Origin: a virus
Taxonomy: Duplodnaviria; Heunggongvirae; Uroviricota; Caudoviricetes
DNA: 29,353 nucleotides
Reading direction: 5' to 3' (one strand)
IMG/VR virus record: IMGVR_UViG_2778261069_000009
The translations under genes and the position numbers were made by a program. Shown here piece by piece: positions 1 through 28,361 of this stretch. A model generated the notes under the pieces. That model was not told the origin of the DNA. It did not search any database and saw only the letters and a list, made by a program, of their open reading frames with translations. Numbering within the stretch: position 1 is the stretch's first letter; each line of letters begins with the position of its first letter.

Positions 1-860
1 TCATTAGCCTTCACTAAGCCACCAGCTGCTATTAATGCACCGGGAATAGTCAATGCTTTTGTCTGATTAGATGATATGAATTCGTTAATTTTACTCGTGA
101 ACTCAAGATTTTTCTCATCGAGTTCGTTAAGAATTTTATTTACAGAAAACCTCTTTGTGTAAATCTCATATAGTTCATCATATTTTTTTCTGACGAGTTC
201 AGTAGAGTTAAGCAAGTCAAAGAAATTGAATGTACCATTTGCTTTAAATACTTCGTTTATGGCTGAACGTATAACGAGCTTGCGCTCGCTTTTGTGTAAA
301 TCATTGATTTTTATTGTGTCGAGAAGCTCCTTTATAATTTCATATTTAAGAGACGAGTTCGATAAGCGATTAATCTCGCTATATTGTAAAAAATGCGTGA
401 GTTCGACTGTATAACTTTTGTCTTCATTGGTGAAAAATAAGACAGAGCAGTCACTGTTATGATGATCAGCAATTAATGAAAGGATATCTTTCCACATAAA
501 GAAAATATGGATTTTTTCGATGCTTTCATTCTTAGAAGTAGGGAGTATTAACGGCGTTCCGATGATATAATTTTTCGGAAGAGCGTTTTGGGTGTTTACT
601 CTAGACCAAAAAGACTCAACATTCTCATAAATTATAGCGTCATCCCAAGATGAAGCTTGGCGATCTAGCCAAATTTCATTATTTTCGATGCAGTTTGTTG
701 CCTTTTTATAACCTATAGATTGTAACAGTCTAATTATTTCAGAACTATTTACAATAACAATGCTTTCTTCAAGACTTATGACAGTGTAGTAGCCCTCAAC
801 TCTGCTTGAGGCTCCGTTAATAATCTGCGCTAATCTTGATAAGTCATCAGCAATTGTCAT
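1..860 (-). CDS. hypothetical protein, partner of the NA37-like gene (start at 860; 3' end runs off the window)
   Basis: ATG at 860-858 lies 2 nt after the TAA of the upstream gene (TAA-TA-ATG). Hand translation gives an unbroken minus-strand frame of more than 285 codons down to position 1, in AT-rich DNA where random frames are short. Begins MTIADDLSRLAQIING; hydrophobic stretch TIPGALIAAGGLV near the window edge. No family recognised. Not in the ORF track, presumably because no stop lies in the window. Confidence 0.6.
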   Translation of the reverse strand, partial: MTIADDLSRLAQIINGASSRVEGYYTVISLEESIVIVNSSEIIRLLQSIGYKKATNCIENNEIWLDRQASSWDDAIIYENVESFWSRVNTQNALPKNYIIGTPLILPTSKNESIEKIHIFFMWKDILSLIADHHNSDCSVLFFTNEDKSYTVELTHFLQYSEINRLSNSSLKYEIIKELLDTIKINDLHKSERKLVIRSAINEVFKANGTFNFFDLLNSTELVRKKYDELYEIYTKRFSVNKILNELDEKNLEFTSKINEFISSNQTKALTIPGALIAAGGLVKAN

Positions 861-862
861 TA

Positions 863-2038
863 TTAGCTGTCTCTATATCTTTTGAGTTCATCATAATTTG
901 CCTGACTCAATTTTATCACAATTTCGCATTTGTTGTCAGTGAGAATTACAGGCTTATTTGACTTTTCGTCTCCAATAGCTCCACGCATTATTTTCAACTT
1001 AAAATTATTGTCGTTATCTGCCACTTCAATTGTAAGCGCGCTTTCAGCTGCTTTAGGAGTTGGTTCAAATTGAGGATCAATCTGGAAACCATTAAGATTA
1101 ACAAAATCGACAAACGTTCCCTTACATTTGTGTGAATCAGTCAGGCATGAGTCAATTATTTTTGAAATATCCTCTATCTTAACGGACTTATTTCCGTATT
1201 TATCTTTTGATTTTTTTTCCAGTAAGGATTTAACTTCATTGTCAATAGTATCACGCAGTACACGACCGAGTGAGTTTTTACTAGCAAAAATATCTATAGC
1301 ACTGAATAATTGCTGAATGCTTCTTTTATTGTCCGAATCATGTCGGCAACCTAATGAGTCTTTGAAAAAATCGCTTTTAGATTTACCTTGCAAGAAATGT
1401 ACATATGAGTCACCCTTGTTTTCTGGATAACTGGCTTCGAATAAAGTTAAATCGAACATCGCAGCCTGCCGTAAGGCATCGGTATTAATTGGATTTAATC
1501 TTGTTGGGGTCAACTTATCCGAATCAAAGTCATAGGCGCTTTGTTTATCAACCATTACGATTAGAAGTTTTCCCAAATCCTCTGGTTCGGTAGACTTATA
1601 GTGGACGAAAACAACGCTCCCCCCCTGAAGTTGGGCAACTCTCGATTCGTTATTAGCATTATGTTTAAGCTTCTCTATTATAGCTCTAGATAAATCAATG
1701 AATTCATTATTTTTATTAATGTATTTTTTTAGGATCGTAGGAATGGATGAAGGGTTGTGATCTGAGTCTAGGAAGTTATGAAATTTGTTTTTTCGGCTAA
1801 ATTTTTTCTCAATTCTGGTTATGAATTCAGATGTGACTTCATTTTTTAGATCCCAAACTTCACCTAATCGATAATCAAATGCTCTTGAATCATTTTTTTC
1901 AAGATTTGCTGTTACAGCACCAATAGGAAAGTACGATTGTTTGCCCAGCACTACAACATGAGGCGTGGCGCCGCATTTATCGCAAGCTACAGTTGGGTCG
2001 TCAAGAACATTGCCACATTCTAAACAAGTTATATCCAT
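863..2038 (-). CDS. zinc-ribbon plus NA37 (YejK/NdpA nucleoid-associated protein)-like domain protein
   Basis: 391-aa ORF in AT-rich DNA. N-terminus has CxxC-10-CxxC (CLECG...CDKCG). Central region aligns by eye with remembered E. coli YejK motifs: GGSVVFVHY then LLIVMVD, later YVHFLQGKSKSDFFKDSLG (YejK: [37 protein letters not shown]). Domain call rests on recall, not a search. Confidence 0.65.
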   Translation of the reverse strand: MDITCLECGNVLDDPTVACDKCGATPHVVVLGKQSYFPIGAVTANLEKNDSRAFDYRLGEVWDLKNEVTSEFITRIEKKFSRKNKFHNFLDSDHNPSSIPTILKKYINKNNEFIDLSRAIIEKLKHNANNESRVAQLQGGSVVFVHYKSTEPEDLGKLLIVMVDKQSAYDFDSDKLTPTRLNPINTDALRQAAMFDLTLFEASYPENKGDSYVHFLQGKSKSDFFKDSLGCRHDSDNKRSIQQLFSAIDIFASKNSLGRVLRDTIDNEVKSLLEKKSKDKYGNKSVKIEDISKIIDSCLTDSHKCKGTFVDFVNLNGFQIDPQFEPTPKAAESALTIEVADNDNNFKLKIMRGAIGDEKSNKPVILTDNKCEIVIKLSQANYDELKRYRDS

Positions 2039-2155
2039 TATATATCCCGAATTATAAGAATGAATTTTTATGTGGCTGAAAATTCTATCAAAACACTAAC
2101 GCGTACGCAAAAAATATCGTAATCTGTTAAGTGTGCTCACTTCGCCACACAGCTT

Positions 2156-2187
2156 AAACCCGCCATCGAGCGGGTTTTGTCGTTTCT
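2156..2187 (+). terminator. intrinsic terminator-like hairpin upstream of the lysis genes (tR'-like position)
   Basis: AAACCCGC (2156-2163), loop CATCGA, GCGGGTTT (2170-2177), then TGTCGTTTC. T-tract is on the plus strand only. Confidence 0.4.
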
Positions 2188-2329
2188 GGGTCTGGGGATT
2201 CCTTGGTCCTAGCCTATCCCGCAGTTATCCATTGACTCGGCTTCTTTGACGTTTCCGCATCTGATTTGCGGTACATGATGTTTCCTCAATTTGCACCTGC
2301 TGTATCAGCGAGGTGAGAGATAACTACAA

Positions 2330-2656
2330 ATGCCTCATAACCCAAATACCTGGCTGGAGTTGGTCCAGAGCTGGTGGCGTGGAGACACACCGCTGGGCGC
2401 AGTGATTATGTCGATCGTTATGGCTGGCTTGCGCATTGCCTATTTTGGCGGTGGTGGTGGCTGGAAACGAAAAACGCTCGAGATTTTGCTCTGTGGTGCT
2501 CTGACGCTGACTTTTGCATCCGCTCTTGAGTATGTCGGATGGCCTAAATCTCTTTCTGTTGCCATTGGTGGCGGCGTTGGGCTGATCGGGGTCGATGCTA
2601 TTCGTGGGGCTGCAATGAGAGTAATCGGTAATAAGTTTGGTGGCTCTAAGGAGTAA
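2330..2656 (+). CDS. holin, lambda S-like (class I)
   Basis: 108 aa with three hydrophobic segments and a charged C-terminus; resembles lambda S as remembered; GAGGTGAGAG RBS-like sequence upstream; immediately precedes the endolysin. Confidence 0.85.
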   Translation: MPHNPNTWLELVQSWWRGDTPLGAVIMSIVMAGLRIAYFGGGGGWKRKTLEILLCGALTLTFASALEYVGWPKSLSVAIGGGVGLIGVDAIRGAAMRVIGNKFGGSKE

Positions 2657-2659
2657 TTT

Positions 2660-3136
2660 ATGCAGGTACTAAATTCCCAGCGTAAAGCTTTCCTCGATAT
2701 GGTGGCATGGTCAGAAGGAACGGATAACGGGCGACAACCGACACGTAACCACGGTTATGATGTTATTGTCGGTGGAGAACTCTTCACTGATTACTCCGAT
2801 CACCCTCGCAAGCTTGTCACGCTAAACCCGAAACTCAAATCAACAGCTGCAGGCCGTTATCAACTTCTTTCGCGCTGGTGGGATGCTTACCGCAAGCAGT
2901 TAGGGCTGACAGACTTCTCTCCTAAAAGCCAGGATGCTGTTGCATTACAGCAGATTAAAGAGCGTGGCGCTTTACCGATGATTGATCGCGGCGATATTCG
3001 TCAGGCTATCGATCGTTGCAGCAATATCTGGGCGTCGTTACCTGGTGCAGGTTACGGTCAGTATGAACATAAAATCGGTGACCTGATTTCCCGGTTTAAA
3101 GAGGCTGGTGGGGTGGTAAATGAAGTTGAGCTATAA
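2660..3136 (+). CDS. endolysin, lambda R-like lytic transglycosylase
   Basis: 158 aa; QRKAFLDM(V/L)AWSEGTDNGRQ...NHGYDVIVGG...LSRWWDAYRKQLGL...RCSNIWASLPGAGYGQ is near-identical over long stretches to remembered lambda R. Confidence 0.9.
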   Translation: MQVLNSQRKAFLDMVAWSEGTDNGRQPTRNHGYDVIVGGELFTDYSDHPRKLVTLNPKLKSTAAGRYQLLSRWWDAYRKQLGLTDFSPKSQDAVALQQIKERGALPMIDRGDIRQAIDRCSNIWASLPGAGYGQYEHKIGDLISRFKEAGGVVNEVEL

Positions 3137-3675: not shown

Positions 3676-4302
3676 TCAGTTGTCAAATGAATATACGTTA
3701 AAGGTATATGTCGACATAATTTCACCAAGTACCTCAATACATATACTTTTTTTATGAAAATTACTGGGAAATGAACTTAGCTCTTCAAGGTATTGCACAT
3801 AAGTGCTGATATCACTTGCATCACGTTCAAGGAATTTCACTTGGCCAAAAGAAGGAGTATTAATCCTGGTTCTTTGCTGGATTATATGGATAAAATGTGT
3901 AGTTGGTGAAACTATTACTCTTGAAATATCGGAAATGATGTCTTCTTGAACTTGCCGATAAAGTAAATCCTTTGGGTAATGGTGTTTTATCTCGATGGTT
4001 GCAACATTGCCATTATGTTCAGACGTTAATATCGACTGGTTATAAAGTGATATGTCAACAGCGCCGATACCGAGTTTTGGATGCTCACTTAAAGCAGTTA
4101 GTGTGCTGATTTGATTGAGTATAACAACTAACTCATCACGTATTTGTGTTTCATGTTTGCGATTGTAGAAGTAGCCATTCAGTTCATTTAACTTTTTATG
4201 CATCCTATCGTGACTAATTGCTTCGATCAGTAAATCCTGAATCATACTTTTCTCTAGGTAATCCGAACGGTTGTAAGTGACAGTATTGTGCTGGCATGTC
4301 AT
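3676..4302 (-). CDS. hypothetical protein (accessory moron gene)
   Basis: 208-aa ORF in AT-rich DNA opposite to phage late transcription; alternative start at Met20 (4245); no family recognised. Confidence 0.6.
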   Translation of the reverse strand: MTCQHNTVTYNRSDYLEKSMIQDLLIEAISHDRMHKKLNELNGYFYNRKHETQIRDELVVILNQISTLTALSEHPKLGIGAVDISLYNQSILTSEHNGNVATIEIKHHYPKDLLYRQVQEDIISDISRVIVSPTTHFIHIIQQRTRINTPSFGQVKFLERDASDISTYVQYLEELSSFPSNFHKKSICIEVLGEIMSTYTFNVYSFDN

Positions 4303-4345
4303 TAATATGTAAAGGTATTGTGAATACCAGAAAGATAACGAAGTA

Positions 4346-4681
4346 TCATCGATAGAAAAACTTTACAGCCCACTCGTAAACAGCTTTGTAAATCGGTTCA
4401 TGGTAAATACTATCGATACTATTCAGATGTGCGATCATCGCCTCCACAGTTGTAGTGGTTGTTTCTAATATTTCGATTATTGCAGGGCGGTCATCATCTT
4501 CATCGAAGTATTCGAACAGCAGTACAGGTTTACCATGCCATTCAGCATCTGAGACTCTAAGGTTACAACTACCGCTCAACTCAAAGTGAATTTTGTAATT
4601 ACCTTCTACAGAATGGCCTACGGGGAAAAAGTATAGGGTGTCATCTTTGTTCAAAAGCCATTCCCATTCATAACTATTCAT
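4346..4681 (-). CDS. hypothetical small acidic protein (accessory moron gene)
   Basis: Start moved to the second ATG (4681), which has AGGAG 7 nt upstream on the minus strand; 111 aa; contains EYFDEDDDRP and a TTTT run; no family recognised. Confidence 0.55.
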   Translation of the reverse strand: MNSYEWEWLLNKDDTLYFFPVGHSVEGNYKIHFELSGSCNLRVSDAEWHGKPVLLFEYFDEDDDRPAIIEILETTTTTVEAMIAHLNSIDSIYHEPIYKAVYEWAVKFFYR

Positions 4682-4831
4682 TTGTGAACTCCTGTTCATT
4701 GAGTTTCAACAACTATCAACTACATCCAGCGAAGCATAAAAGATCGTTTATGGCAAAACCGGAATGGAGTGCGATTCGATTCTGAGAAGGATGCCACGTA
4801 TCGTACGCGAACCATCCAAGAGGATTATGCA

Positions 4832-24321: not shown

Positions 24322-24376
24322 TGCAGAAATAACGGCTAACTGGCATCATCTCTGGTTTTTATTCAGAGGGATGATC

Positions 24377-24931
24377 ATGCTTATTGGCTATGTACGCGTG
24401 TCAACAAATGACCAGAACACCGATTTGCAACGTAATGCACTGAACTGCGCGGGATGTGAGCGGATTTTTGAGGATAAAATCAGTGGAACTAAGTCCGACA
24501 GACCAGGACTGAAAAAACTGCTCAGGACATTATTGGCAGGTGACACGCTGGTGGTCTGGAAACTGGACCGACTGGGGCGCAGTATGCGGCATCTTGTCGT
24601 GCTGGTGGAGGAGTTGCGCGAACGAGGCATTAACTTTCGTAGTCTGACGGATTCAATTGATACCAGTACCCCAATGGGGCGCTTTTTTTTTCATGTGATG
24701 GGTGCCCTGGCTGAAATGGAGCGTGAACTGATTGTTGAACGAACAAAAGCTGGACTGGAAGCTGCTCGCGCACAGGGACGAATTGGTGGACGTCGTCCCA
24801 AACTTACACCAGAACAATGGGAACAGGCCGGACGATTAATTGCATCAGGAGTTCCTCGCCAGAAGGTGGCGATCATCTATGATGTTGGTGTGTCAACTTT
24901 GTATAAGATGTTTCCTGCAGGGGATAAATAA
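24377..24931 (+). CDS. pin: serine DNA invertase (Pin/Gin/Hin family)
   Basis: MLIGYVRVSTNDQNTDLQ with the catalytic Ser, GDTLVVWKLDRLGRS, RFFFHVMGALAEMEREL and a C-terminal HTH; near-identical to e14 Pin as remembered. Start placed at ATG 24377 because the AGAGGG RBS abuts the first ATG at 24371. Confidence 0.95.
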   Translation: MLIGYVRVSTNDQNTDLQRNALNCAGCERIFEDKISGTKSDRPGLKKLLRTLLAGDTLVVWKLDRLGRSMRHLVVLVEELRERGINFRSLTDSIDTSTPMGRFFFHVMGALAEMERELIVERTKAGLEAARAQGRIGGRRPKLTPEQWEQAGRLIASGVPRQKVAIIYDVGVSTLYKMFPAGDK

Positions 24932-25037
24932 AGTTAAAGTCACTTTGTGTACAAAAGAAAATAAAACAACAGCAACTTGTTGCAATTTTATCAATAAAAG
25001 TAGTATTGTCGTAAAAAATTGATTAAAGATTAATATT

Positions 25038-25871
25038 ATGCATGTTTTTGATAATAATGGAATTGAACTGAAAGCTGAGTGTTTGATAGGTGAAGAGGAT
25101 GGTGTTTATGGTCTAATCCTTGAGTCGTGGGGGCCGGGTGACAGAAACAAAGATTACAATATCGCTCTTGATTATATCATTGAACGGTTGGTTGATTCTG
25201 GTGTATCCCAAGTCGTAGTATATCTGGCGTCATCATCAGTCAGAAAACATATGCATTCTTTGGATGAAAGAAAAATCCATCCTGGTGAATATTTTACTTT
25301 GATTGGTAATAGCCCCCGCGATATACGCTTGAAGATGTGTGGTTATCAGGCTTATTTTAGTCGTACGGGGAGAAAGGAAATTCCTTCCGGCAATAGAACG
25401 AAACGAATATTGATAAATGTTCCAGGTATTTATAGTGACAGTTTTTGGGTGTCTATAATACGTGGAGAACTATCAGAGCTTTCTCAGCCTACAGATGATG
25501 AATCGCTTCTGAATATGAGGGTTAGTAAATTAATTAAGAAAACGTTGAGTCAGCCCGAGGGCTCCAGGAAACCAGTTGAGGTAGAAAGACTACAAAAAGT
25601 TTATGTCCGAGATCCGATGGTAAAAGCTTGGATTTTACAGCAAAGTAAAGGTATATGTGAAAACTGTGGTAAAAATGCTCCGTTTTATTTAAATGATGGA
25701 AGCCCATACTTGGAAGTGCATCATGTAATTCCCCTGTCTTCAGGTGGTGCTGATACAACAGATAACTGTGTTGCCCTTTGTCCGAATTGCCATAGAGAAT
25801 TGCACTATAGTAAAAATGCAAAAGAACTAATCGAGATGCTTTACGTTAATATAAATCGATTACAGAAATAA
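25038..25871 (+). CDS. mcrA: McrA, modified-cytosine-specific (type IV) restriction endonuclease with C-terminal HNH
   Basis: 277 aa beginning MHVFDNNGIELKAEC; C-terminal CENCG...HHVIPLSSGGADTTDNCVALCPNCH HNH motif; matches remembered E. coli K-12 McrA over essentially the whole length; AT-rich gene at the prophage end as in e14. Confidence 0.93.
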   Translation: MHVFDNNGIELKAECLIGEEDGVYGLILESWGPGDRNKDYNIALDYIIERLVDSGVSQVVVYLASSSVRKHMHSLDERKIHPGEYFTLIGNSPRDIRLKMCGYQAYFSRTGRKEIPSGNRTKRILINVPGIYSDSFWVSIIRGELSELSQPTDDESLLNMRVSKLIKKTLSQPEGSRKPVEVERLQKVYVRDPMVKAWILQQSKGICENCGKNAPFYLNDGSPYLEVHHVIPLSSGGADTTDNCVALCPNCHRELHYSKNAKELIEMLYVNINRLQK

Positions 25872-26403: not shown

Positions 26404-27336
26404 TTACAGAGTTTCCTCAAAGAATGGAGCTAATACTGAAATCGCTTCAGCCACATAGGCTTTGCCGTCATAGAGGTCCATATGGTTAGCGCCTTCAACA
26501 ATGTGATAGCGTTTATCCTGACTTGATGCTCGATCGTACAGGTCGTCACTCATCCATTTACTTCCTGCCAGACTGCCCGCCACAATCTGCATCGGCTGAG
26601 TCAGGTACACTTCCGCCATATGGTAAGCATCATAGGTAATCATCTGGTTAAGGCTGCGCAAAGTAGCGTAACCCGGTGCTGTTGGATACTGCGCGCGAGA
26701 GGTGTGGTAATACTCCCAGGCCTGACGCAGTTCTTCGTTCGGCGCATCGGCCTCCTTCATTGGCGCCAGTGGCATAATGGCGTATTCTCCGCTGCTAATA
26801 TCGCTGGTTCGGGCGTTTGAGCCAGCTTCAATGTGTGGCAGAGCATCAATAGATTTCACATTGTTTTCCCAACCATTGCGGAACATCGAACCAATATTGA
26901 CCGCACTAACGGTACCGATGGCCTTGATGCGGCGATCCTGAATTGCAGCATTGGCTGTATATCCTGCACCGGCACAAATTCCCATCGCACCAATTCGGGC
27001 ATTGTCGACATAAGAAAGTGTTGTCAGGTAATCAATTACGGCACTGACGTCTTCAGTACGAATGTATGGGTTTTCTAACTGACGCGGCTCGCCGCCACTT
27101 TCACCTTGATAAGAGGCGTCATAAGCGATGGTGACAAATCCTTTTTCCGCCAGTTTTTCGGCATAGGTTCCGGCTGTTTGTTCTTTAACGCCTCCACCGG
27201 GGTGAGATACCACAATTGCCGGATACTGACGGGTTTCATCAAATTGGGGAGGGAAATAGATCACAGCAGACAAAGAGATGGTTGGATTATTGCTGTTAGT
27301 GAAGCTGACTTTATTATTCATCATTCCGTTCCTCAT
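26404..27336 (-). CDS. alpha/beta hydrolase with Cys nucleophile (dienelactone hydrolase-like)
   Basis: 310 aa; HPGGG oxyanion-type motif and GICAGAG nucleophile elbow with Cys in place of Ser; divergent from a LysR regulator. Confidence 0.75.
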   Translation of the reverse strand: MRNGMMNNKVSFTNSNNPTISLSAVIYFPPQFDETRQYPAIVVSHPGGGVKEQTAGTYAEKLAEKGFVTIAYDASYQGESGGEPRQLENPYIRTEDVSAVIDYLTTLSYVDNARIGAMGICAGAGYTANAAIQDRRIKAIGTVSAVNIGSMFRNGWENNVKSIDALPHIEAGSNARTSDISSGEYAIMPLAPMKEADAPNEELRQAWEYYHTSRAQYPTAPGYATLRSLNQMITYDAYHMAEVYLTQPMQIVAGSLAGSKWMSDDLYDRASSQDKRYHIVEGANHMDLYDGKAYVAEAISVLAPFFEETL

Positions 27337-27461: not shown

Positions 27462-28361
27462 ATGAAACGTGAAGAAATCGCTGATCTGATGGCATTCGTC
27501 GTCGTTGCAGAGGAGCGTAGCTTCACTCGCGCAGCAGTCCGCCTGGGCATGGCGCAGTCAGCTTTAAGCCAGATAGTGCGCCGTATAGAAGAACGATTGG
27601 GATTGCGGCTTCTGACGCGAACCACGCGCAGTGTTGTACCAACTGAAGCGGGCGAGCATCTTTTGTCTGTTCTTGGCCCTATGCTGCATGACATAGATTC
27701 TGCCCTGTCATCCCTGAGTGAGCTGCAGAATCGCCCATCCGGGACAATACGTATTACTACTGTAGAACATGCAGCAAAAACGATATTGTTACCAGCCATG
27801 CGCACATTCCTGAAATCACACCCTGAAATTGATATTCAGCTTATCATTGATTATGGTTTGACTGATGTCGTTTCTGAGCGTTTTGATGCAGGCGTCCGTC
27901 TGGGTGGGGAGATGGATAAAGATATGATCGCCATTCGAATCGGGCCAGATATACCAATGGCTATTGTTGGCTCACCGGATTATTTTTCCCGCCGAAGTGT
28001 TCCAACGTCAGTGTCACAATTAATAGATCATCAGGCCATTAATTTGTATCTTCCCACATCGGGTACAGCAAATCGCTGGAGATTAATACGCGGTGGACGC
28101 GAAGTTCGTGTTCGCATGGAAGGTCAGCTTTTACTGAATACGATAGACCTGATCATTGATGCTGCAATTGATGGGCACGGATTAGCGTATCTACCTCATG
28201 ATCAGGTTGAGCGGGCGATTAAAGAAAAAAAACTGATACGTGTTCTGGATAAATTCACACCAGATTTACCCGGTTATCACCTGTACTATCCGCATCGTCG
28301 ACATGCTGGCTCGGCATTCTCCTTATTTATAGATAGGCTGAAGTATAAAGGCGCTGTTTAG
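27462..28361 (+). CDS. LysR-family transcriptional regulator
   Basis: 299 aa; N-terminal HTH (FVVVAEERSFTRAAVRLGMAQSALSQIVRRIEERLG) and a C-terminal co-inducer-type domain. Confidence 0.85.
   Translation: MKREEIADLMAFVVVAEERSFTRAAVRLGMAQSALSQIVRRIEERLGLRLLTRTTRSVVPTEAGEHLLSVLGPMLHDIDSALSSLSELQNRPSGTIRITTVEHAAKTILLPAMRTFLKSHPEIDIQLIIDYGLTDVVSERFDAGVRLGGEMDKDMIAIRIGPDIPMAIVGSPDYFSRRSVPTSVSQLIDHQAINLYLPTSGTANRWRLIRGGREVRVRMEGQLLLNTIDLIIDAAIDGHGLAYLPHDQVERAIKEKKLIRVLDKFTPDLPGYHLYYPHRRHAGSAFSLFIDRLKYKGAV

Follow-up and report, generated by a model that had tools for sequence, protein, structure and literature searches.

What do the two minus-strand genes at the left end of this viral DNA encode, and do they form a new kind of anti-phage system? 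The window, which is the whole stretch of 29,353 nucleotides that was analysed (IMG/VR record IMGVR_UViG_2778261069_000009), belongs to a virus of the class Caudoviricetes, and a sequence-only reading had seen in its first 2,038 positions a probably horizontally acquired candidate for a new defence or exclusion module. The cassette is a system already known, named DS-1. With a probability of about 0.85, the gene pair represents a DS-1 allele that lambdoid/e14-like prophages carry as exchangeable cargo, in the interval from the Q antiterminator gene to the holin gene. The upstream gene is called here DS-1A and its partner DS-1B, and their features are collected in Table 1.

Table 1. Features of the DS-1 cassette and of its right flank, in window coordinates
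Feature	Position	Strand	Description or basis
DS-1A (gene A)	863..2038	minus	391 aa ORF
DS-1B (partner), codons 1-286 of 404	1..860	minus	N-terminal soluble domain and start of hydrophobic region
Gene junction TAA-TA-ATG	858..865	minus	TAA 865..863, TA 862..861, ATG 860..858
Juxtamembrane helix and first hydrophobic helix (predicted), DS-1B codons 226-286	3..185	minus	alignment A1, hydropathy
NA37 domain (PF04245), DS-1A codons 64-376	911..1849	minus	Pfam
Putative CxxC-10-CxxC zinc ribbon, DS-1A codons 5-22	1973..2026	minus	translation
Cassette-specific upstream region	2039..2095	minus	promoter-like site: -35 TTGATA 2091..2086, -10 AAAAAT 2069..2064
Terminator-like hairpin	2156..2177	plus	conserved phage backbone upstream of holin; flank, outside the cassette
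Holin gene	2330..2656		hairpin lies between DS-1A and holin

The GC content is 0.33-0.37 across positions 1..2000, against 0.46-0.50 in the lysis genes and 0.52-0.61 in the structural genes, in agreement with the AT-richness ascribed to the pair (33-37% vs 46-60% in the flanks). The 2-nt spacing between the genes was also read in the sequence as had been claimed, and this spacing by itself suggests that their translation may be coupled. From its ATG at 860..858, the DS-1B frame exits the left end of the window after 286 codons; the full-length gene of 404 codons was read from a locus (L001) that has 99.5% nucleotide identity to window positions 1..2300.

The identity of the pair was revealed by the NCBIfam equivalog models built for DS-1. 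Model NF053868 (DS1_1_antiphage) scored 450.5 bits on DS-1A (cut-off 330), with an alignment that spans positions 3-369 of the 369 in the model, and NF053869 (DS1_2_antiphage) scored 375.2 bits against a cut-off of 315, the latter with the full-length L001 partner and not with the window fragment. DS-1 consists of WP_000355468.1 and WP_000150292.1 (working ID D390, Tables S6, S8 and S11; PMC13092281), and its gene content and gene order are those of the present pair. DS-1A differs from the first at 2 of 391 residues (V145 for I, Y281 for H), and DS-1B from the second at 1 of the 286 visible residues (N56 for T), which corresponds to protein identities of 99.5% and 99.7% (visible part), respectively. 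These three amino-acid substitutions, and the end of the partner at codon 286 in the window, are the differences between this copy and the cloned DS-1.

DS-1, short for DefensePredictor discovered system 1, was reported by DeWeirdt et al. in the work on DefensePredictor (bioRxiv January 2025, 10.1101/2025.01.08.631726; Science April 2026, PMC13092281). Expressed from its own promoter on a low-copy plasmid, it protected E. coli MG1655 against Bas1, Bas3, Bas26, T3, T5 and T7, which represent T1-like, T5-like and T7-like phages (PMC13092281). The values of -log10(EOP) in Table S7 of that work are 7.6 for Bas1, 2.7 for Bas26, 1.7 for Bas3, 1.7 for T3, 1.0 for T5 and 0.92 for T7, and the table has no T4 entry for DS-1 (PMC13092281). 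The published work describes the phenotype only, without mechanism or mutants (PMC13092281).

The defence function guessed by the sequence-only reading is thereby borne out, given that a pair 99.5-99.7% identical to the present one is an experimentally validated anti-phage system. The claim of novelty, which was based on no NA37-based defence being known, does not hold: both DS-1 and PANGU (Li et al., bioRxiv preprint April 2026, 10.64898/2026.04.06.716658) have been described, dedicated NCBI models name both proteins, and RefSeq now labels the partner 'anti-phage protein'. A search of PADLOC-DB v2 (2023) gave no match for either protein at E <= 1, nor for the full-length partner at E <= 5. 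This absence is due to the date of the database and not to novelty, and since the 2023 release does not contain the system, a check restricted to PADLOC would make the pair look new. As a discovery there is nothing new here, as DS-1 has already been named, its phenotype tested and NCBI models built for its annotation; even so, a first pass that had nothing but the letters to go on singled out a genuine defence system.

The position of the cassette in the prophage was delimited by its right flank. Similarity to cassette-less prophages starts at window positions 2090, 2095 and 2102, which places the right boundary at ~2090-2100 and maps it to ~10 bp. The hairpin lies within a segment common to SfIV, E. 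coli S56 and DLP12. The pair had been placed just upstream of a tR'-like terminator and the holin, at a site where lambdoid phages carry lysogenic-conversion cargo; both parts of this description are supported by the hairpin and the holin gene listed in Table 1, and by a swapped cassette in a Q-holin slot whose flank is shared with cassette-less prophages. In these prophages, defence cargo is exchanged at the slot between Q and the holin gene. A consensus promoter scan upstream of DS-1A found 1 site against 1.1 expected by chance, and the promoter-like site of Table 1 is not evidence of a promoter.

PHROG 3767 is labelled 'nucleoid-associated protein', and RefSeq long used the same label for the DS-1A gene. 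NdpA-type proteins occur on plasmids, such as Pnd of pCAR1. These labels, together with AT-rich DNA in a moron slot, would also be expected of a mobile-element nucleoid protein that acts with an accessory membrane protein in prophage maintenance or host gene silencing, phage resistance being incidental. Such a role is the least probable of all the readings considered: carried by itself on a low-copy plasmid and away from prophages, the pair protects by 1 to >7 logs, relatives are found in non-prophage defence islands, and the constant association with a membrane protein would be left unexplained.

At the N-terminus of DS-1A, the cysteines C5-x2-C8-x10-C19-x2-C22 were read directly from the translation. 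The zinc ribbon that had been claimed is present as a CxxC-10-CxxC motif, with Pfam zinc-ribbon models staying below threshold (best model Zn_Ribbon_1, 13.4 bits against a cut-off of 25). The 18-residue motif is kept in 48 of 89 full-length relatives of DS-1A, and the others carry an acidic tail instead. The AlphaFold2 model has low confidence in this region (pLDDT 53-69) and shows a flexible linker at residues 27-33.

The remainder of the protein is related to YejK. PF04245 matches residues 64-376 with E = 6.2e-24 (85.4 bits against a gathering score of 24.6), phmmer aligns DS-1A with the YejK structure 9BE2 at E = 1.4e-9, and for the AlphaFold2 model (pLDDT 85) 9BE2 is the sole significant Foldseek match (E = 3.6e-14, probability 1.00). 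The proposed similarity to NA37 is significant by all three methods, and the YejK/NdpA motifs named in the sequence-only reading, GGxVxFxHY and Y..FL.G...DFF.D.LG, fall inside the 9BE2 alignment. The basic pore residues by which YejK (9BE2) binds DNA are R173/R176/K177 and R276/R280/K284. Residue R176 corresponds to K219 of DS-1A, within the invariant motif GKSKSDFFK, and the C-domain triad R276/R280/K284 falls beyond the alignable region. The possibility that DS-1A is the housekeeping YejK was ruled out: it scored 81 bits on the YejK equivalog NF001557, whose cut-off is 341, and DS-1A is therefore a YejK paralogue. A homologue search with profile A2 returned the same family again and no additional E. 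coli NA37 paralogue.

For DS-1B, the Pfam and PDB sequence searches found no domain and no match, and the protein matches PHROG 5023. The invariant columns of alignment A1 lie mostly within residues 226-280, and the best-conserved stretch is KKYDELYEIYTKRFSVNKILNELDEK..TSKINEFISS.QTKALTIPGALIA. The hydrophobic segment noticed near the window edge was located as ALTIPGALIAAGGLVKAN, which spans DS-1B residues 268-286 at window positions 3..59. Family-averaged hydropathy showed that hydrophobic stretches are conserved across the family at 266-309 and 363-388, the second preceded by KAKKRMRTVK. The structural model (pLDDT 84) consists of long helices, and the hydrophobic helices of the hairpin are short, with ~15 residues each. 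By these features the partner looks like a membrane protein, and its insertion into the membrane is predicted; the conserved hydrophobic helices and the helical model fit the membrane effector that had been suggested as possible. With a pI of 5.3 and a net charge of -7 across its 225 aa, the N-terminal domain is only mildly acidic (the homologues have pI 4.5-7.0), a composition that does not clearly mark it as a DNA mimic.

A Foldseek search with the DS-1B model gave nothing at E <= 1e-3, and hence no significant fold match to ClyA-type alpha-pore-forming toxins or CorA channels; the non-significant matches were to alpha-pore-forming toxins and CorA. The same non-significant fold matches, the long helices with a hydrophobic hairpin, and the tight linkage of the genes (2 nt) could also be accommodated by a module of toxin-antitoxin type, in which DS-1B would be a membrane toxin curbed by DS-1A and freed at host transcription/translation shut-off. 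We consider this improbable. The lack of a Foldseek match below the threshold weighs against it, and a putative antitoxin that is encoded upstream and is as large as 391 aa would be atypical. In addition, in type II PANGU, which is formed by the NAP Pag2A and the membrane effector Pag2B, defence needs both genes, and neither gene alone nor the pair is toxic (10.64898/2026.04.06.716658).

The pairing of the two genes is maintained among their relatives. By tblastn, 11 of 12 related loci (L003-L014) have an NA37 frame in the same orientation immediately before the partner, a count in which the L005 contig holds only the last 83 NA37 codons and L014 only an N-terminal NA37 fragment. One locus, L012, has a clear gap of ~50 nt between the genes. 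An NA37 gene likewise lies directly upstream in two distant members of the partner family (E about 1e-25 and 1e-17). A profile search gathered 772 representatives of this family at 50% identity, and the family is far larger than its annotation implies. The genes neighbouring the relatives include AbiE, AAA_21, ResIII, MmeI, NERD/UvrD and BstA_C, and some relatives are located in defence islands outside prophages. With the partner as tblastn query, 50,697 phage records gave no match, and plasmids gave six matching records. Three of these are enterobacterial (two E. coli, one Klebsiella), and in them a Q antiterminator gene underlies the match; those from Paraglaciecola, Glaciecola and Methylobacter are remote, with 25-26% identity.

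How DS-1 might act can be modelled on type II PANGU. In PANGU, a nucleoid protein leaves the nucleoid once the phage degrades host DNA and then engages an effector; upon infection the NAP-GFP fusion moves off the nucleoid, and the NAP is bound by the N-domain of the effector with a KD of 19 nM (10.64898/2026.04.06.716658). The response depends on the denA-driven breakdown of host DNA by T4 (10.64898/2026.04.06.716658). By analogy, DS-1A dimers would clamp the chromosomal DNA in the manner of YejK, breakdown of host DNA by the phage would release them, and freed DS-1A would bind the cytoplasmic N-terminal domain of DS-1B. The three predicted hydrophobic helices of DS-1B, a hairpin at ~269-303 and a helix at ~363-388 with long helices joining, might then compromise the inner membrane, in such a way that the cell would no longer support phage growth (abortive infection). 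Taken as a whole, this scheme has roughly even odds. In its favour, the phages restricted by DS-1 fall in groups, T1 and T5, that the PANGU authors count among the degraders of host DNA (10.64898/2026.04.06.716658). Against it are the phage spectra, which are opposite for DS-1 and PANGU-Ecu, the mildly acidic N-domain of DS-1B and its short hairpin helices.

Another reading gives DS-1 a different cue. DS-1A could clamp incoming phage DNA or sense a phage protein at the membrane, and DS-1B could block injection or replication locally, in a Kiwa-like manner and without killing the cell. The phage spectrum, which is unlike that of PANGU-Ecu, the clade-specific zinc-ribbon motif (48/89 relatives) and a partner N-domain that is not strongly acidic would agree with this. 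The EOP of Bas1, down by >7 logs with no plaques, would agree as well, although the size of the effect alone cannot separate direct immunity from abortive infection. On the other hand, the NA37 fold is a sequence-nonspecific clamp, and the same two-gene architecture responds to denA-dependent breakdown of host DNA, which makes sensing of something besides host-DNA loss rather unlikely, though clearly less so than the toxin-antitoxin arrangement. Release of DS-1A on host-DNA loss is the reading we prefer. A variant, which we put forward tentatively and with more doubt than belief, is that the zinc-ribbon NAP clade of DS-1 answers a cue of T1-/T5-/T7-type infection and not the denA breakdown by T4. 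The partner would then be an unclassified inner-membrane effector, gated via the strongly conserved juxtamembrane helix 226-268 and with an architecture like that of alpha-pore-forming toxins, and DS-1 would not be simply a type II PANGU.

Among the known systems, Kiwa consists of the membrane protein KwaA and the DNA-binding protein KwaB. It is similar to DS-1 in having two genes, one for a protein of the membrane and one for a protein that binds DNA, but no sequence relationship was detected (no PADLOC match), and gene order and domains differ. The E. coli YejK (NdpA, 9BE2), a dimeric and sequence-nonspecific DNA clamp, shares with DS-1A the fold found by Foldseek and the conserved core motifs, whereas the identity in the structural alignment is 18% and DS-1A has in addition a putative zinc ribbon at its N-terminus and depends on pairing with a predicted membrane protein. 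Type I PANGU, composed of the NAP Pag1A and the GRel toxSAS Pag1B, has an NA37-family sensor and the same proposed logic of nucleoid release followed by effector engagement, but its effector is a soluble alarmone synthetase and not a membrane protein.

The likeness to type II PANGU (Pag2A and Pag2B) is one of architecture. A YejK-like gene lies directly upstream of a partner with a soluble N-terminal domain and C-terminal hydrophobic helices, and both systems are known from E. coli as well as from the defence islands of diverse bacteria; in the window pair, the two-gene operon with a NAP is present and a C-terminal transmembrane region of the partner is predicted. The zinc-ribbon motif of DS-1A has no mention for Pag2A, and the partner N-domain expected of a type II PANGU is an acidic DNA mimic, whereas that of DS-1B is only mildly acidic. 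PANGU-Ecu blocks T4, with T1 and T5 being resistant to it (10.64898/2026.04.06.716658), whereas DS-1 restricts T1-, T5- and T7-like phages. Because these spectra are opposite, DS-1 is a useful second test case for the proposal that the loss of host DNA is sensed by nucleoid proteins.

The two minus-strand genes at the left end of the window, gene A (DS-1A) and its partner (DS-1B), are an already known anti-phage system, DS-1. In NCBIfam, gene A scored 450.5 bits against the equivalog NF053868 'DS1_1_antiphage' (cut-off 330), and the full-length partner scored 375.2 bits against NF053869 'DS1_2_antiphage' (cut-off 315); it is through these DS1 models that a record with newer annotation already names the partner 'anti-phage protein'. 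In E. coli strain 2016C-3878 (locus L001), gene A is WP_000355468.1 and the full partner is WP_000150292.1, of 404 aa, which is convergent with the Q antiterminator gene, their 3' ends overlapping by 21 bp. The differences from the cloned DS-1 proteins (window residue first) are V145/I and Y281/H in gene A and, within the visible part of the partner, N56/T. A megablast search found at least 80% of window 1..2300 in 106 of 5,426 complete E. coli genomes, most at 99.5% identity. PHROGs families 3767 and 5023 match the pair, and the suggested PADLOC check gave no match for either protein in PADLOC-DB 2023. The sequence-only reading had proposed a new NA37-based defence module; its novelty is out of date, since the pair is already named, and its defence function is borne out by the cloned copy, which restricts phages (PMC13092281).

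DS-1 was reported by DeWeirdt et al. in 'DefensePredictor' (bioRxiv January 2025, Science April 2026; PMC13092281), where Tables S6, S8 and S11 list it as transcription unit D390, composed of WP_000355468.1, annotated as YejK/NA37 at residues 42-382, and WP_000150292.1. Each unit, under the native promoter predicted for it, was carried by a low-copy plasmid and tested against 24 phages, the DS-1 construct being pCV1-D390 in MG1655 (PMC13092281). In Table S7, the -log10(EOP) of D390 was 7.6 for Bas1, with no plaques seen, 2.7 for Bas26, 1.7 for both Bas3 and T3, 1.0 for T5, 0.92 for T7 and about 0 for SECphi27; small plaques were recorded for Bas26, Bas3, T3, T7 and SECphi27, and T4 is absent from the D390 rows (PMC13092281). 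The main text mentions only 'a YejK nucleoid-associated domain' as newly validated in defence, and the paper gives no DS-1 mutants or mechanism (PMC13092281).

As had been noticed by eye, the pair is AT-rich: the GC content is 0.33-0.37 at window 1..2000 versus 0.46-0.50 in the lysis genes and 0.52-0.61 in the structural genes. The 2-nt spacing of the ORFs was read again at their junction, and the terminator-like element expected before the holin gene is a hairpin; with these, all the features noticed by eye are confirmed. Alignment of the window to L001, whose prophage has lambda-type head genes, is confined to 1..3134. The same DS-1 cassette is found in these two different phage backbones, which supports its horizontal exchange, in line with the acquisition proposed earlier from base composition. 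The slot between Q and holin holds differing minus-strand cargo among related prophages (E. coli S56, Shigella phage SfIV and DLP12). The S56 cargo protein is a predicted defence gene in DefensePredictor, where its match to HNH/type II REase is a remote one. Homology to the window begins at 2090 in SfIV, 2095 in the S56 prophage and 2102 in DLP12, which places the right-hand cassette boundary near 2090-2100, some 55 bp upstream of the gene A ATG.

Features of the window, of the partner protein and of the Q-holin slot in compared prophages (window coordinates unless a locus or residues are named)
Feature	Position	Strand	Remark
Gene A ORF	863..2038	-	391 codons; directly upstream of partner, same strand
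Partner	ATG at 860..858, to window left end	-	286 codons visible; window opens inside gene
Gene junction		-	TAA-TA-ATG, read from sequence
Terminator-like hairpin	2156..2177	+	between gene A and holin gene
Holin gene	2330..2656		lambda-family holin follows gene A in L001
Second AT-rich island	3676..4699	-	ORFs of 208 aa and 117 aa; GC about 0.37
Pin-like serine invertase	24371..24931	+	at prophage end
Alpha/beta hydrolase	26404..27336	-	past HNH protein
LysR regulator	27462..28361	+	past alpha/beta hydrolase
Partner, alpha/beta domain	residues 1-165		predicted model
Partner, helices	residues 169-218		predicted model
Partner, very long helices	residues 220-268, 288-331, 337-383		predicted model
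K-12 DLP12 cargo	L015 2530..4826		nmpC
SfIV cargo	L019 1922..3344		two hypothetical genes and IS1
E. coli S56 cargo	L020 1918..2664		248-aa protein WP_001406331.1

The second AT-rich island is flanked by Rz/Rz1 on one side and by the genes for HNH endonuclease and terminase on the other; DLP12-type prophages carry bor/iss and ylcI in this slot. Its ORFs have no match in Pfam, NCBIfam or PADLOC and match PHROGs 12494 and 14397, both labelled as of unknown function; the proteins, WP_000613841.1 and WP_001089762.1, are hypothetical in RefSeq, and neither is among the DefensePredictor table entries that were accessible. Window 24371..25871 (+) is an e14-type prophage end, in which an AT-rich gene for a 277-aa HNH protein comes after the invertase. 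The full-length match of this protein to PADLOC mREase_IV (662 bits) identifies it as McrA-like type IV restriction, so that the prophage carries at least two defence functions. The hydrolase and the LysR regulator are probably host genes.

A word-indexed search gave 69 partner clusters, Enterobacterales for the most part, and a HMMER profile search of 1.84 billion representatives gave 772 with E <= 1e-3, 372 of them with E <= 1e-10, with family members nearly all of about 380-450 aa. By tblastn, an NA37 frame lies directly upstream of the partner, on the same strand, in 11 of 12 profile-recovered genome loci, a count that takes in L005, with only the last 83 NA37 codons on the contig, and L014, with only an N-terminal fragment; two distant members (E about 1e-25 and 1e-17) likewise have NA37 directly upstream. 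The neighbours of DS-1-like pairs are typical defence-island and mobile-element genes: BstA_C and recombinases in Serratia; AbiEii/DUF6088, AAA_21 and a ResIII helicase in an integrase island of Pseudoteredinibacter; and MmeI, NERD/UvrD and conjugation genes at other loci. A BstA C-terminal-domain gene adjoins the pair in a non-prophage Serratia marcescens island (L016 9423..10334), and another is located in the nin region of a DS-1-bearing E. coli prophage (L002 695..1624). In E. coli AF5 (L002 4863..6812), IS1 interrupts the DS-1A gene, whose two fragments are each annotated as 'nucleoid-associated protein'; this copy is therefore probably inactive. A 2.6-kb contig binned as a Lactobacillales MAG (L004, JAATEZ010000277.1) holds a DS-1-like pair whose identity to the window proteins is 48% and 38%; its placement may be a binning error, since the other close relatives are all Gammaproteobacteria.

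The HMM search confirmed the NA37 domain of gene A, with PF04245 spanning residues 64-376 (E = 6.2e-24, over the Pfam gathering score). The N-terminus, MDITCLECGNVLDDPTVACDKCG, carries the CxxC-10-CxxC pattern noted earlier; gene A scores below the gathering scores of the zinc-ribbon Pfam models. The AlphaFold2 model (pLDDT 85, pTM 0.77) is confident in the NA37 body; pLDDT is 53-69 over the putative zinc ribbon, after which comes a flexible linker (27-33). The solved YejK structure 9BE2 was the sole significant Foldseek match of the model in PDB (E = 3.6e-14), and the YejK/NdpA motifs noted earlier are found in the phmmer alignment of gene A to it (E = 1.4e-9). Assignment to housekeeping YejK was rejected, at 81 bits versus a cut-off of 341. 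YejK forms a dimeric clamp whose basic pore measures 30 Å, and DNA binding is lost in the YejK mutants R173/R176/K177 and R276/R280/K284 (PMC11229321). In the phmmer alignment, R176 corresponds to gene A K219, within GKSKSDFFK, and the C-domain triad falls beyond the part that could be aligned; G218, S220, F225 and K226 of this motif are invariant in the gene A family. The same 18-residue CxxC-10-CxxC segment occurs in 48 of 89 full-length relatives, and in the remaining ones, mostly of Pseudomonas type, an acidic N-terminal tail takes its place. This tail is strongly acidic and of low complexity among the relatives P0131-P0157, e.g. MNDSAVNENPSDELELDEELDES, and such proteins are still paired with a DS-1B-like partner at a Pseudomonas locus (L012).

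The partner has no Pfam domain and no sequence relative in PDB; fold searches with its model (pLDDT 84, pTM 0.62) returned only generic helical bundles, and Foldseek no significant match. Its visible C-terminal end is ALTIPGALIAAGGLVKAN, the hydrophobic segment seen near the window edge. Family-averaged hydropathy marks residues 266-309, two short helices forming a hairpin with KANETTE between them, and 363-388, with KAKKRMRTVK just before; three membrane helices together with a cytoplasmic N-domain are predicted on this basis. The membrane partner proposed earlier thus agrees with two conserved hydrophobic regions. In the family alignment, conservation peaks at 226-285, in a juxtamembrane helix followed by KALTIPGALIA.G.

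PANGU systems, described in an April 2026 preprint by Li et al., combine YejK-like NAPs with effectors (10.64898/2026.04.06.716658). The type I NAP binds long DNA non-specifically and comes off the nucleoid upon T4 host-DNA degradation, with escape mutants in denA; once freed, it binds the acidic 'DNA-mimicking' domain of the effector, which becomes active, and the pair is toxic once the NAP is DNA-binding-dead (10.64898/2026.04.06.716658). Type II consists of the NAP Pag2A and of Pag2B, whose N-terminal domain mimics DNA and whose C-terminal region is transmembrane; in its E. coli example, PANGU-Ecu, both genes are needed, neither being toxic, the course of infection looks abortive, T4 is restricted, and T1 and T5 are resistant (10.64898/2026.04.06.716658). 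Pag2A-GFP leaves the nucleoid upon T4 infection, and the Pag2B N-domain binds Pag2A with a KD of 19 nM (10.64898/2026.04.06.716658).

DS-1 likewise joins a YejK-like NAP to a partner with an N-terminal domain and a predicted C-terminal membrane region, and it very probably belongs to, or adjoins, the type II PANGU class. Because the architecture is the same, we adopt the type II mechanism as the most likely for DS-1, with a probability of about 50%: the NAP would be freed from the nucleoid and would then engage the membrane partner. The value is held there because the likeness is architectural, the zinc ribbon is unmentioned, the phage ranges differ and the N-domain is mildly acidic. A zinc ribbon, such as the putative one of DS-1A, goes unmentioned in the PANGU preprint, and DS-1 is not cited in it (10.64898/2026.04.06.716658). 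The Pag2B N-domain is described as a DNA mimic; the N-terminal 225 residues of DS-1B are only mildly acidic (pI 5.3, net charge -7). Bas1 and Bas3 of the BASEL collection are presumably T1-like phages, and Bas26 a T5-like one. PANGU-Ecu restricts T4 and not T1 or T5, whereas the phages that DS-1 restricts are T1-, T5- and T7-like, T4 not being among the entries. DS-1, carried by a low-copy plasmid, was under its native promoter and PANGU-Ecu was induced with IPTG, and these differing expression systems could explain part of the discrepancy between them.
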